In this document: positions 37,889 through 43,719 of the stretch, one piece after another | Layout of the letters: every line of letters starts with the position of its first letter | Numbering within the stretch: position 1 is the stretch's first letter | Virus record (IMG/VR): IMGVR_UViG_2925903241_000005 | Span: 1-46,437 of that record | From: a virus | Lineage: Duplodnaviria > Heunggongvirae > Uroviricota > Caudoviricetes | Reading direction: 5' to 3' (one strand) | DNA length: 46,437 bases | Position numbers and translations under genes: made by a program | The notes under the pieces: model-generated | The model's input: only the letters and a program-made list of their open reading frames with translations | What the model was told of the DNA's origin: nothing | The model's database searches: none

Positions 37889-38515
37889 ATGGAAACGGTT
37901 GGTCAGCGTATAAAAGCTCTGAGAAGAGTTACCAGAACGTCCCAGAAAGAATTGGGTAAATTTTGTGGAGTAAGCGACGTTGCTGTGGGGTACTGGGAGA
38001 AAGACATCAATACCCCTGGTGGGGAGGCACTTTCGAAATTAGCGAAGTTCTTCAATACGTCAATAGATTACATTCTTTATGGTGCTGAGTTTGAAGGCAA
38101 ACTCGTCACAAACATGCGCAGAGTTCCTGTAATATCGTGGGTTCAGGCTGGGCAGTTTACTGAGTGCAGGGCAGCAGAAGTGTTTAGTGAAGTGGACAAG
38201 TGGGTAGATACATCATTAAAGATTGGTGATAACTCATTTGCATTAGAGGTTAAAGGTGACTCCATGACTAACCCTAATGGCCTCCCAACAATACCAGAAG
38301 GCGCAACAGTGATTGTAGATCCAGATGCAGAACCTCGTCATGGAAAAATAGTCATCGCTCGACTTGATGGAACAAACGAAGCTACAGTAAAAAAATTAGT
38401 CATCGATGGCCCTCAAAAGTTTTTAGTGCCATTAAATCCTCGGTATCCCAACATCCCTATCAATGGTAATTGCCTTATCATTGGTGTAGTCAAAGGAGTT
38501 CAATACGAACTCTAA
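37889..38515 (+). CDS. cI: CI-type prophage repressor (HTH + LexA-like S24 autopeptidase domain)
   Basis: N-terminal HTH (..TSQKELGKFCGVSDVAVGYWEKD..) and C-terminal S24 motifs (..LEVKGDSMTNPNG.. Ser; ..TVKKLV.. Lys). Confidence 0.85.
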   Translation: METVGQRIKALRRVTRTSQKELGKFCGVSDVAVGYWEKDINTPGGEALSKLAKFFNTSIDYILYGAEFEGKLVTNMRRVPVISWVQAGQFTECRAAEVFSEVDKWVDTSLKIGDNSFALEVKGDSMTNPNGLPTIPEGATVIVDPDAEPRHGKIVIARLDGTNEATVKKLVIDGPQKFLVPLNPRYPNIPINGNCLIIGVVKGVQYEL

Positions 38516-38700
38516 GACCTCTCTTCTCTAACTAAGGCACCGAACTAAGAAAAGTTTGGTGTTTTCTCTTGCCATAATAACTAAGTTAAGTTAGATTTTA
38601 TGTCAAAGATAACGAACAGGCAGGACGCCCACGAAGTAGCCGCCGGTGGCGTATGAATGACCGGATGATTCGTTAAATACTATGTGTAAGAGAGCGCAAA
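38516..38700 (+). promoter_or_regulatory. OL/pL-like region with the same operator half-sites
   Basis: AACTAAGGCACCGAACTAAG and CTAAGTTAAGTTAG motifs; candidate -35 TTGCCA and -10 TAGATT with 17-bp spacing. Confidence 0.4.
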
Positions 38701-38902
38701 TGAACCGTTATTTCACATGCTCGTTTTGTGGCGCAAACGAGCTGCAGGCAAAAAAATCATCGCCAAAGGCGGAAAAGATGAAGTTGCTATCTGCTCTGAG
38801 TGCGTAGTCTTGTGTGTCGGAGCATTAATCAATATCAGCACAACTATTCAGTTCACACCAAATGAGAATGCGCCTTTAGATGCGCGGAAATCTGGAGGTT
38901 AA
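38700..38902 (+). pseudogene. ClpX-type C4 zinc-finger-like small protein, interrupted by a frameshift in an A7 tract
   Basis: One frame gives MNRYFTCSFCGANELQAKK; the +1 frame gives ..KKIIAKGGKDEVAICSECVVLC.. Joined they give CSFCG-x21-CSEC, like the ClpX N-terminal zinc finger. The switch is at 'gcaaaaaaatc'. Confidence 0.45.
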
Positions 38903-38910
38903 AGAACAAA

Positions 38911-39186
38911 ATGAAAGTCCAGATTTTAAACAATAGTGGTGAAGTCGTTTGGTCATACGACATAGCCGCTCCTGTAGATCAGAGCGGCGATAGCTGGACC
39001 AATGGGAAACATCAGATTATGGCTGGAGTTGTATTCTCTTTACACCGTGCTTTGGAACAGGCTGAAGTATTTCCATCAGACCCTGAATGGAAATGGCCTT
39101 TTTCTATTTGTCCAAATTCGGAGAGCACATTTCAGAAAATTGGTCAGAAAGTCGCACTCGAAGAGCATCAGCCAACTGTTTTCTGA
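38911..39186 (+). CDS. hypothetical protein (early-left operon)
   Basis: 91-aa ORF with a GGAGG RBS about 8 nt upstream; 3' end converges on a minus-strand ORF. Confidence 0.35.
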   Translation: MKVQILNNSGEVVWSYDIAAPVDQSGDSWTNGKHQIMAGVVFSLHRALEQAEVFPSDPEWKWPFSICPNSESTFQKIGQKVALEEHQPTVF

Positions 39187-39349
39187 TTTTTTCAGGTAAC
39201 TCGTCGGCATCGCAGAAACAACAACGCTCGATCATGTTGAAAGCCGATTCGTAGAACTGTTTCTGCTGAGTGTCGCTGAGACAGGAAAAGAGCGACGTTA
39301 CGATGATTTTATTAATTGCATTATCAAGTTCTTTTTCATCAAAAGTCAT
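39104..39349 (-). CDS. hypothetical protein (antisense to early-left operon)
   Basis: 81-aa ORF with AGGAAA RBS 7 nt upstream; protein-like composition; overlaps 38911..39186 by about 83 bp. Confidence 0.3.
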   Translation of the reverse strand: MTFDEKELDNAINKIIVTSLFSCLSDTQQKQFYESAFNMIERCCFCDADELPEKIRKQLADALRVRLSDQFSEMCSPNLDK

Positions 39350-39596
39350 TTGATTTTCCTTTTATGTATACGGGCTTAAAAGGATACCACCGAGCCTGAA
39401 GTGGTGAAAAGACAGGCACATAACAGCTAAGTATTTTCAACCAGAGAGAATCCTTAGCGTTGTGGTGAATGCGGCTCAGCGCACGCGGGTTAAGGTTGAG
39501 GCTGACAGTCGACCTTCTGTGGATACCCACCCGTCTGGTGTGCAACCTTCGCCAGGCACCGGGAGGCACCCGGCACCACAACTTTATGCTGTGTGT

Positions 39597-39649
39597 AGTC
39601 TTGGCGGTACCAGTTTGTACCCTTGCTTCCGGCTGGTACCGCTCTTTTT
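39597..39649 (+). ncRNA. dicF: DicF-like small RNA
   Basis: TTGGCGGTACCAGTTTGTACC... matches the remembered E. coli DicF 5' region (TTTGGCGGTATCAGTTTTAC) at about 15 of 16 positions; ends in a 10-bp perfect hairpin (GCGGTACCAG/CTGGTACCGC) plus TCTTTTT. Confidence 0.55.
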
Positions 39650-39768
39650 ACAAAACAGAGAAGAGCATCACCGGACGACGGGCTCATAACCCAATCCATC
39701 CGGGCGGCTGCCACCGCAGGTGTTCTTCTCTGTTTTGTGGAGAAACCAACCGACCTTGCAGGGTCGAT

Positions 39769-40149
39769 ATGATGAGGAGCAGCAAAATGGCTAGCGAACG
39801 CAGTACTGATGTGCAGGCATTTATCGGGGAGCTGGACGGCGGCGTATTTGAAACCAAAATCGGCGCAGTTCTCAGTGAAGTCGCTTCCGGTGTGATGAAC
39901 ACGAAAACCAAAGGTAAGGTCTCGCTTAACCTGGAAATCGAACCGTTTGATGAGAACCGTGTGAAAATAAAACATAAACTCTCATATGTTCGCCCGACTA
40001 ACCGCGGGAAAATTTCCGAAGAAGACACCACCGAAACGCCGATGTATGTCAATCGCGGTGGTCGCCTGACTATTCTGCAGGAAGACCAGGGACAATTACT
40101 GACTCTTGCCGGTGAACCTGACGGAAAACTCCGCGCAGCAGGTCATTAA
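39769..40149 (+). CDS. YfdP-like hypothetical protein
   Basis: 126 aa from the internal MMRSSKMASERS; upstream part of the 226-aa track ORF covers the structured RNA region; call rests on remembered YfdP-Q-R-S-T gene order. Confidence 0.4.
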   Translation: MMRSSKMASERSTDVQAFIGELDGGVFETKIGAVLSEVASGVMNTKTKGKVSLNLEIEPFDENRVKIKHKLSYVRPTNRGKISEEDTTETPMYVNRGGRLTILQEDQGQLLTLAGEPDGKLRAAGH

Positions 40150-42328: not shown

Positions 42329-42538
42329 ATGGCAAAACTAATGAAAGCGAGCCAATGGGGACGCCGTGAATTCTCTAATGGCTCAATTCCTGACAACCGA
42401 ACGATAAAACGCTGGGTCGAGAACGGTCTGCTCATGGGGCGTATCGTGGACGGTTCTGTTTTTGTCTGCGAAACAGAAAAATGGGGAGTCGACTCAATGG
42501 TTAGTCAAGCTGTTCGCAAGTTAATAAATGAGGGATGA
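42329..42538 (+). CDS. xis: excisionase (Xis-like)
   Basis: About 69 aa from ATG after a GGAG RBS; ..RTIKRWVENGLLMGRIVDGSVFVCE.. resembles excisionase winged-helix; stop overlaps the int start (ATGA). Confidence 0.6.
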   Translation: MAKLMKASQWGRREFSNGSIPDNRTIKRWVENGLLMGRIVDGSVFVCETEKWGVDSMVSQAVRKLINEG

Positions 42539-43719
42539 CCATGGCGGCAAGGCCACGTAAAAAAGAATACAGACATCTTCCTGATTATCTGGTTTTTGAT
42601 AAAGATCGAGGTGTTTATAAATTCACACTTATTACCGGAAAAAAGAAAAATATAGGTAAGGATCGGGCAATAGCCGTTGCAATCGCCAGAGAGTACAACC
42701 TGAGGATGCGATCAGAATTATACCCATCAGTGGATAATCTTATTAGAGAATCTGGCGGGGTCACCGGAGAAGCAAAACCATTTGCTGAACATGTCGATCA
42801 CATAATGGCCAGAATTATCGAAGACGAACGACCTTCCCAGAGTACCTTAGATGACTGGAAAAATGACGCTCTACGCGTAAAAGCGTTTTTCGTAAATGTT
42901 CCGGCATGCGATATCGAACTTGAACACGTTAATGCCTACATCAACAAATATCATGCCAGCGCATCCGCAAATGTGCAGAACAGAAAGGTCAGCTTTCTTA
43001 AAAAGTTGTTCTCTTATGCGGTCGATGAATCACTAATGCAGGATAACCCGGCCATCAGAAAAAAAATGCGTAGGACTGATGAGAAGAAAAGACGGCGCCT
43101 GTCACTCGAACATTTTATAGCTATCAGGCAGGCCGCTGCACCATGGTTAAGAACAGCAATGGACCTAGCATTGCAGACTACACATGCACGACTCGAAGTA
43201 TCGCGAATCCGTTACTCAATTCGCGAACCTAAAGACGGTTTATGTGGATGTGTTTGGTTCGAACAACCACAAAATGGCATATATGGTACACTATACATCC
43301 ATAGGCAAAAAGTACAAAAAAAGGAGGCATCACATGTTGCAATACCAATTGGTGAAGAATTGAAACGGATAATTGACAATAGCCGTGACAATGTGGCCAG
43401 TCCCTTTGTCGTTCATAGAATCCCAGAACGGCATGTTAAACGCAGTAAAGAGGTTTCGCACCCAACTCAAGTTGCACCAGATTATTTGAGTCGGTCATTC
43501 TCTTCCGTGCGAGACAAACTCGGACTATGCAATCATCTAGCAATGGAACAAAGACCTACATTCCATGAAATAAGAGCTTTGGCAGCTCACCTATTTGATA
43601 AACAAGGGATTGATCCGCAGGGACGAATGGCACATAGCGATGCGAAATCTACTAAAATTTATACTAAAAATCATATAGATTGGATTGTTGTCCCTCATGG
43701 AGAAATTAAAACCGGTTAG
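42535..43719 (+). CDS. int: tyrosine integrase (lambda Int family)
   Basis: 394 aa; ..PTFHEIRALAAHLF.. and ..AHSDAKSTKIYTKNH.. catalytic-region motifs; position at the prophage end after xis. Confidence 0.9.
   Translation: MTMAARPRKKEYRHLPDYLVFDKDRGVYKFTLITGKKKNIGKDRAIAVAIAREYNLRMRSELYPSVDNLIRESGGVTGEAKPFAEHVDHIMARIIEDERPSQSTLDDWKNDALRVKAFFVNVPACDIELEHVNAYINKYHASASANVQNRKVSFLKKLFSYAVDESLMQDNPAIRKKMRRTDEKKRRRLSLEHFIAIRQAAAPWLRTAMDLALQTTHARLEVSRIRYSIREPKDGLCGCVWFEQPQNGIYGTLYIHRQKVQKKEASHVAIPIGEELKRIIDNSRDNVASPFVVHRIPERHVKRSKEVSHPTQVAPDYLSRSFSSVRDKLGLCNHLAMEQRPTFHEIRALAAHLFDKQGIDPQGRMAHSDAKSTKIYTKNHIDWIVVPHGEIKTG

Follow-up and report, generated by a model that had tools for sequence, protein, structure and literature searches.

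An unexpected tRNA-fMet-like hairpin in a structured early-operon leader of SfV-like lambdoid prophages

Directly downstream of the terminator of a small RNA (sRNA) in a tailed-phage record (IMG/VR IMGVR_UViG_2925903241_000005; Caudoviricetes) lies a long inverted repeat, and the locus raises the question of what such a structure does between a terminator and the start of the next gene. An earlier note, made from the letters alone, had offered three answers, namely an RNase III processing site, a second sRNA or an antitermination RNA of the put/nut type. The stretch analyzed here, hereafter the window, comprises 46,437 nucleotides and is a lambdoid E. coli prophage of the SfV-like kind. A query of 451 nt that covers the sRNA and the repeat (window 39350-39800) is 98.4% identical to Shigella phage SfV, and identities of 98-100% are found to SfV, phage vB_EcoM-720R4 and many chromosomes. 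The gene order, in which cI is followed by the sRNA, the repeat and yfdP (Table 1), places the repeat in the leader of the early-left operon, past the sRNA terminator; yfdP is the first gene of this operon in the window's phage, and the annotation of SfV orf32 maps onto its start at 39787. We refer to the structure formed by the repeat as the Y element, and to its three helical arms as P1, P2 and P3.

Table 1. Features of the window around the Y element, with the basis of each assignment
Feature	Position	Strand	Basis and remarks
cI-type repressor gene	37889-38515	+	followed by small ORFs
Probable STnc100/PasD-family sRNA	39429-39651	+	Rfam STnc100 match; folding
sRNA intrinsic terminator	39603-39649	+	stem 39603-39613 / 39633-39643, 19-nt loop, U-tract 39645-39649
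Whole Y element	39645-39745	+	three-way junction of P1, P2 and P3 with conserved 3' tail GGAGAA; folds, model R1 118.1 bits
P1 5' arm	39650-39669	+	partner 39719-39738, 20 bp; both-side changes in 6 of 20 pairs
P1 3' arm	39719-39738	+	covariation; found independently by RNAalifold
P2 arm	39671-39703	+	basal stem CCGGA / UCCGG, internal loop, then sequence-conserved apical hairpin
P2 apical hairpin	39679-39692	+	C-GGG-CUCAUAA-CCC; 14-nt exact copy of tRNA-fMet anticodon stem-loop
P3 arm	39704-39717	+	GCGG-CUGCCA-CCGC; hairpin in most variants
GGAGAA tail	39739-39744	+	conserved; GGAGA able to pair with terminator U-tract
Second small hairpin	39751-39766	+	CGACC-UUGCAG-GGUCG, between Y element and ribosome-binding site
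Shine-Dalgarno GAGGAG and yfdP	39774-40149	+	GAGGAG 39774-39779, ATG 39787, stop 40149; ORF list; PHROG 204
Integrase gene	42535-43719	+	further on, past yfdP, yfdQ and yfdR

A repeat search of the window recovers the two arms as 25-nt segments (39650-39674 and 39714-39738) that are 84% complementary, and only three inverted repeats of comparable quality are present in the whole 46 kb. The stem of about 14 bp described in the earlier note is real: the outer 15 nt of the arms, ACAAAACAGAGAAGA and TCTTCTCTGTTTTGT, pair perfectly, and in the plus-strand RNA five further pairs, including a G.U, complete a helix of 20 bp, which is P1. Another five pairs, formed between the U-tract of the terminator and the GGAGA at 39739-39743, can extend P1 to 25 bp. 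The enclosed segment had been described as a loop of about 55 nt with palindromes of its own; it measures 49 nt (39670-39718) and does fold as two sub-hairpins, P2 and P3. The minimum free energy of the plus strand is -51 kcal/mol, as against -24.8 +/- 3.4 for 200 dinucleotide shuffles (z = -7.8), none of which folds as well, and the minus strand folds more weakly (-46.2, z = -5.9). A covariance model of the element (R1), run with filters off on the whole window, yields one match at 118 bits, the next being at 17 bits. The latter, an insignificant score, falls on another strong inverted repeat at 26320-26376, with 25-nt arms that are 84% complementary and a 7-nt loop.

BLAST searches and two pattern scans of viral contigs assembled a family of 131 copies of the Y element, which comprise 62 distinct sequences of 102-129 nt. 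A separate scan had its pattern restricted to the 3' arm of P1, with P2 lying outside it. All of the 131 copies belong to lambdoid prophages, and the hosts identified are E. coli/Shigella, Salmonella (ST64B, 118970_sal3) and Citrobacter (phiNP). One further copy, beyond the 131, was reached in Kosakonia sacchari via the sRNA motif. A scan of genome contigs with the 15-mer GTTGTGGTGAATGCG gave matches that were nearly all due to chance, the useful ones coming from E. coli and Kosakonia only, and a YfdQ-based search of viral contigs returned 80 loci that are all about 100% identical and add no new diversity. In complete E. coli genomes a 127-nt query finds matches in 2491 of 5426, with up to five copies each, which are annotated as nothing or as 'hypothetical protein'. 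A search of Rfam 15 with the element (39645-39745) gave no match at gathering thresholds, and at E <= 10 the Y element matched only 'Hairpin ribozyme', on the minus strand and with 14.5 bits.

Folding of the family members indicates that all of them adopt the same Y shape. In an alignment of the 62 sequences (A1), 92.9% of the cells are paired, as opposed to 41-54% when the partners are slid against each other; 10 of the 34 pairs have changes on both sides, and such double changes occupy 108 cells, a number that none of 500 shuffles reaches (36.5 +/- 4.3). RNAalifold, unaided, recovers both P1 and the apical hairpin of P2. The comparison with relatives proposed in the earlier note thus finds the element both conserved and covarying. 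P1 is exactly 20 bp long, with no indels in the 62 distinct sequences and 95.4% of its cells paired, and its pairs are swapped between lineages (for example C-G in 36 and A-U in 20 sequences; G-C in 47 and C-G in 15; A-U in 40 and G-C in 19). It also contains a conserved U.G pair (59 of 62 sequences) and a recurrent central mismatch at alignment columns 17/112 (36 of 62), many family members having one or two mismatches in this helix. The basal stem of P2, which is 7-8 bp long in relatives, covaries as well, its variants including CCGGGUG/CACCCGG, CCGAGUG/CGCUCGG, CCAGG/CCUGG, CCAUGCG/CGCAUGG and CCGACGGG/CCCGUCGG. Both the length (about 11-40 nt) and the sequence of P3 are hypervariable, with 77 distinct variants, and three of its four closing pairs show changes on both sides. 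On the opposite strand the G.U pairs, frequent and conserved as they are, would turn into C.A mismatches, and the functional molecule is therefore the plus-strand RNA. The Y element is a genuine structured RNA with strong support and a wide distribution, and it had remained uncatalogued.

Conservation continues beyond the three helices. The GGAGAA after P1 is almost invariant, and immediately past P1 on its 3' side there is a conserved (A/G)UG. A conserved leader peptide starting at this triplet was considered and rejected: the lengths, sequences and stops of the possible peptides differ, no Shine-Dalgarno sequence precedes the start, and the start lies inside the helix. Further downstream, 84 of 92 distinct segments form a stable second hairpin, the stems of which differ between copies around a conserved loop motif, (U/G)GCA(G), with GCAG or GCAA in 75 of the 84. 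The tip loops of P3 at the family loci fall into the classes (U)UGCA(G/A), YCCUAA/C and CUGCCA, and a CUGC or UUGC in P3 could pair with the GCAG of the second hairpin, though not in all lineages. A pseudoknot between the CAU loop of P2 and the (A/G)UG, and a kissing contact between the loops of P3 and the small hairpin, are likewise possible on paper, the partners being invariant or lost in some lineages.

Examination of the P2 tip, part of what the earlier note had passed over as loop, reveals that it is the best-conserved portion of the element, even in the Kosakonia copy and in those copies that were found without P2 in the search pattern. The 14 nt at 39679-39692 (CGGGCUCAUAACCC) are identical at every position to nucleotides 29-42 of the E. 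coli initiator tRNA-fMet (metZ), a segment that spans three G-C pairs and the 7-nt loop CUCAUAA with the anticodon CAU. The longest substring shared with metZ is thus 14 nt, the maximum in 20,000 shuffles is 12 nt, and the analytic expectation for such a match over about 45 tRNA species is about 1e-3. Initiator tRNAs are distinguished by three consecutive G-C pairs beside a CAU loop, a feature that is recognized in the ribosomal P site. Among 104 sequences of copies found by a pattern outside P2, the tip is GGGCUCAUAACCC in 53, and the others mostly have GGGCUCAUUCCCC, GGGUUCAUAACCC or GGGCCCAUAACCC; CAU is nearly always kept and the variation affects positions 33, 37 and 38, with C at 33 or U at 37 departing from the rules for tRNAs in some lineages. 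The element is not itself a tRNA, a candidate identity that we rejected: ARAGORN calls no tRNA gene in the window, the Rfam tRNA model gives no match at E <= 10, and the acceptor and T arms are lacking. A literature search recovered no paper on an initiator-tRNA mimic in a phage leader.

The sRNA upstream of the Y element aligns over its full length with Rfam STnc100 (RF02076; model positions 1-206) at 44.3 bits and E = 2e-8, the gathering score being 47, and a scan at the gathering threshold calls no STnc100 match for it. Its core is a multi-arm 'cloverleaf' closed by a stem of 39455-39467 with 39574-39586, and between the cloverleaf and the terminator runs a conserved single-stranded U/G-rich stretch, UGCUGUGUGUAGUCUU (about 39586-39601), such that the sRNA joins its cloverleaf core to a DicF-like module of seed plus terminator. 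Homologous cores are present in SfV, mEp460, ST64B, phiES15 and Qin. The terminator, with perfect 10-nt arms (39604-39613 and 39633-39642), had been taken for DicF-like in the earlier note. It is a genuine terminator, and its resemblance to Rfam DicF (RF00039) is weak (19.1 bits, E = 0.12, below the gathering score of 48); it constitutes the 3' module of this probable STnc100-family sRNA. The T-run of the terminator adjoins P1 in 129 of the 131 family copies. In the Cronobacter phage phiES15 (locus L132, 1500-1700) the same sRNA family and terminator are followed by kil without a Y element, and hence the element is dispensable for biogenesis of the sRNA.

The terminator and the Y element also form a unit in the mosaic structure of these phages. 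Many phages, among them mEp460, cdtI and Stx2c phages, share 39601-39800 alone at high identity, others share 39387-39752, and the corresponding breakpoints at about 39601 and about 39752 flank the two features. Terminator and Y element therefore move together between different sRNA cores and different downstream genes. Diverse genes are found first on the 3' side of the element, namely two types of yfdP, yfdR, xisE and representatives of at least three other families, and the distance from P1 to the start codon, counted by hand, is 45-57 nt in most native contexts, whatever the gene. In e14 of the E. coli K-12 lineage (locus L006, 2582-2893) the gene ymfH has been drawn across the cloverleaf sRNA, the terminator and the Y element, and it is probably no protein gene. 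A clone overexpressing 'ymfH' of e14 has been described as a trigger of the retron-Sen2 toxin RcaT (bioRxiv 10.1101/2020.06.22.160242); this might be an RNA effect, and would then be an indirect hint that the locus makes an active RNA.

In light of these features, we tentatively propose that the Y element is a cis-acting leader domain of read-through transcripts, processed by RNase III at P1 and carrying its tRNA-like hairpin as a recognition module, an account that may well be correct without our calling it probable. P1 is a helix in the leader of the early-left operon, read from the cI side towards xis/int, in N-less lambdoid prophages of the SfV, ST64B, e14 and mEp460 type, and in this model the domain would be made only when RNA polymerase passes the intrinsic terminator of the sRNA. 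On such a read-through RNA P1 would form, with 20 bp fixed and about 25 bp reached by absorbing the U-tract of the terminator. RNase III, judging by the geometry of the helix, would then cut P1 and separate the sRNA from the mRNA, and the putative cut would set the stability and the translatability of the message that starts 45-57 nt downstream. The P2 tip, in turn, could be recognized by a factor of the translation apparatus or by a protein that binds the anticodon arm of initiator tRNA.

The geometry typical of RNase III sites, about two turns (20-22 bp) of mostly uninterrupted double-stranded RNA, is present in P1, which in the window's phage comprises 25 consecutive pairs; the E. coli enzyme accommodates about 22 bp of double-stranded RNA (PMC6212723). 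In the Qin prophage, to the extent that a citing paper recounts it, DicF owes its ends partly to termination and partly to RNase III/RNase E, which process the transcript of the dicB operon (Faubladier 1990, cited in PMC6212723). The suggestion of an RNase III site is compatible with the anatomy, a helix of 20-25 bp and invariant length after an sRNA terminator, and cleavage itself is a prediction; mismatches in P1 could lower or redirect it. Processing by RNase III leaves the sequence conservation of the P2 tip, of GGAGAA and of the second-hairpin loop unexplained, and these features point to a specific partner, the leading candidate explanation being that the tip may act as a working mimic of the initiator-tRNA anticodon arm.

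Several readings of this conserved tip and of the leader as a whole have to be weighed against the proposed model. Taken broadly, the idea that the copied anticodon arm of initiator tRNA is functional in the leader, whether by occupying the P site in cis (in an IRES-like or self-repressing manner) or by being read by VapC-type toxins or MetRS, is conceivable and on balance doubtful; were it true, the state of the host initiation machinery would govern how the early-left operon is expressed. In its narrower form, in which the P2 tip would dock in the 30S P site or bind MetRS and thereby repress or prime initiation downstream, we consider it unlikely. The exact 14-nt identity with its three G-C pairs typical of initiators, the retention of CAU throughout the family, the (A/G)UG immediately 3' of P1 and the fairly constant distance to the start codon of whichever gene follows would all suit such a mimic. 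They have to be set against the missing acceptor and T arms and the negative results of ARAGORN and Rfam, against positions 33 and 37, which break the tRNA rules in about one-third of the variants, against one lineage with two G-C pairs only, and against the possibility that the identity stems from a captured tRNA fragment. The tip might instead be a decoy or sensor for nucleases that cut initiator tRNA, such that its cleavage would report activation of a toxin or protect the genuine tRNA. Shigella and Salmonella have VapC toxins that cleave within the anticodon stem-loop of tRNA-fMet, and structures of this kind were cut by every VapC examined (PMC7180214); the element is present in phages of these two hosts and of E. 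coli. A low-copy mRNA leader would nevertheless make a poor decoy for an enzyme, and the element is common in E. coli genomes, counted without regard to their vapBC content, such that we hold this reading to be quite improbable. A third possibility, that the loops with the (U/G)GCA(G) motif in P3 and the second hairpin are contacts for an RNA-binding regulator of the phage, as in nut/boxB or a translational operator, also has little probability. The stems of the second hairpin covary, and the motif is present in 75 of its 84 loops and in about half of the P3 variants; it is, however, missing from many other P3 variants, no partner protein has been identified, and the operon begins with variable genes where lambda has N. 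A boxA-like string, CGCTCTTTTTACAA (39640-39653), which might have supported such a site, reads GTCCTTTTT, GCTATTTTT, GACCTTTTT or GCCCTTTTT in relatives, and we reject its identity as a boxA because it is not conserved; nor does a conserved boxA resembling CGCUCUUA precede a boxB hairpin, as it would in a nut site of the lambda type.

The same observations bear on the antitermination RNA suggested in the earlier note. A processive antiterminator like put, in which the folded RNA would bind polymerase, make it resist the early-left terminators and stand in for N, would agree with a leader position in a lambdoid operon, with conserved sequence in a two-arm structure and with the lack of an N-type gene, none being found in the ORF list or in PHROG scans of 10 ORFs (37.0-41.7 kb), in agreement with what the note had remarked. 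We nonetheless think it improbable: each phage has one copy only, with no counterpart on the cro side, the three-way junction closed by a 20-bp helix is not a pair of adjacent hairpins, the element lies past the only obvious terminator instead of before it, and the best score of model R1 in the whole HK022 genome is 19.9 bits, for a generic hairpin beside IS903 that is matched on both strands. A separate second sRNA fares no better, as no promoter-like site precedes the element and no terminator follows it. What had been observed in the earlier note therefore stands, and its interpretation survives in part, namely in its compatibility with RNase III. The upstream sRNA might alternatively target the leader, pairing with it to cause termination or a block of translation in the manner of the P4 CI and P1 c4 RNAs. 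The immunity loci of P4 and P1 consist of an sRNA followed by leader sequences, a layout that resembles the present one. In SfV, as far as it is described in a citing paper, superinfection immunity reportedly depends on a non-coding RNA (Roberts 2007, cited in PMC3475682). Yet the duplex energy computed with RNAduplex is no better than that of shuffles, no pairing site is shared across five phages with different sRNAs, and mEp460 combines a diverged sRNA core with an identical Y element. A search for contiguous complementarity between sRNA and leader likewise yielded no conserved site; in two phages it picked up 9-bp matches to the small hairpin, which is no more than chance would give, and we regard an immunity target as very improbable. 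Least credible of all, to the point of being nearly negligible, is an element that acts at the level of DNA (a recombination linker at a mosaic boundary, a cruciform or a palindrome bound by protein) or an N-terminal coding extension of the next gene, the latter having been raised in the earlier note. Breakpoints do lie on either side of the terminator and Y element, and ORFs drawn by annotators do cross it (ymfH in e14, 'hypothetical protein' elsewhere). On the other hand, compensatory changes and conserved G.U pairs fit an RNA and neither DNA nor coding sequence; and because the downstream genes vary between copies, the substitutions are compensatory and the length of P3 shifts by steps that are not multiples of three, we reject a coding extension and regard the element as non-coding.

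Comparison with known systems sets the proposed leader domain in context. The leader of lambda N contains an RNase III hairpin and nutL before N. As in the present case, a large hairpin (about 100 nt) separates the early-left promoter region from the ribosome-binding site of the first gene, but the Y element is a three-way junction with a conserved tip, it comes after an sRNA terminator, and neither an N gene nor a conserved boxA was found with it. The thrS operator is an mRNA leader that mimics the anticodon arm of tRNA-Thr and binds ThrRS. It too presents a copy of an anticodon arm upstream of a ribosome-binding site, with the difference that it controls the gene for the cognate synthetase, whereas the Y element carries the initiator-tRNA arm ahead of unrelated phage genes. 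The putL and putR sites of HK022 are structured leader RNAs, independent of protein in that phage, in early operons of a lambdoid phage without N; each of the two copies consists of a pair of adjacent stem-loops (about 70 nt), in contrast to the one closed three-way junction seen here. The leader of metY-rimP-nusA reportedly contains an RNase III hairpin after the tRNA gene, in work ascribed to Regnier and Grunberg-Manago (1989), and a long hairpin directly after metY is visible in the E. coli sequence. The combination of a structured RNA gene, leaky terminators and a long hairpin before an mRNA is alike in the two cases, but there is no homology in sequence or structure, and a real tRNA gene is found there whereas only an anticodon arm, inside the hairpin domain, is found here.

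Among prophage loci, dicF-dicB of Qin is similar in that an operon of the early-left type contains a DicF-type terminator, then a branched domain with a long helix and then the next gene. The order of the modules is reversed: in Qin (locus L128, 2383-2610) DicF and its terminator precede the cloverleaf (GATGTGGTGAATGCGG...GGCACTGCATCAC), which is followed by dicB, whereas the cloverleaf of the window precedes the terminator. The post-terminator domain of Qin is thus STnc100-like, closed by a helix of roughly 17-20 bp according to pairing by hand, and the dicF-dicB spacer is therefore a homologue of the window's sRNA core. The Y element with its tRNA-like tip is unrelated to it, and model R1 has no match in Qin. 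In the isrK-orf45-anrP locus of Gifsy-1, read-through of an sRNA terminator produces an mRNA, and the structure of its leader governs translation (PMC4825925); there a segment of the sRNA pairs with the downstream ORF, whereas the Y element folds on its own, and the searches for pairing with the sRNA found none. The termination-mediated immunity of SfV probably concerns the same region in the same type of phage, as far as the account given in a citing paper goes (Roberts, Allison and Verma 2007). A preprint on the Pas/STnc100 sRNAs does not mention the Y element, and HnrS, considered as related literature, was set aside as an sRNA of the late region.

The above analysis identifies a structured RNA in almost half of the complete E. 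coli genomes, often in several copies, and also in serotype-converting phages of Shigella and in Stx2c phages. Rfam has no entry for it, and annotations either pass over it or place spurious ORFs, such as ymfH, on it. It occupies the control point of the early-left operon, with its genes for recombination, excision and integration, in phages in which no N-like gene was found. If P1 is an RNase III site, a single promoter could serve a trans-acting sRNA as well as an mRNA that is controlled separately, and if the tRNA-fMet-like hairpin works as a mimic, it would represent a new route from a phage message to the initiation machinery or to tRNA-cutting toxins. The family is large and covaries well, and K-12 (through e14) and SfV are convenient carriers of the element.

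The interval between cI and the sRNA has some features of its own. A small gene for a ClpX-type C4 zinc finger (PHROG 5259) is represented at 38682-38902 (+) by two overlapping ORFs; it is intact, with 67 amino acids, in E. coli strain 2A, and is hence apparently frameshifted in the window's prophage. The ORFs at 38911-39186 (+) and 39104-39349 (-), belonging to PHROG 3195 and PHROG 3311, to which no function is assigned, overlap on opposite strands, and at most one of them is likely to be a real gene. Just 5' of the sRNA, the stretch 39381-39426 (+), ACCACCGAGCCTGAAGTGGTGAAAAGACAGGCAC, can form alternative hairpins. Even Klebsiella phages without the remainder of the region retain it at about 95% conservation, and phiES15 and LLS have it too; it may act as a promoter/operator or represent the transcript's 5' end.
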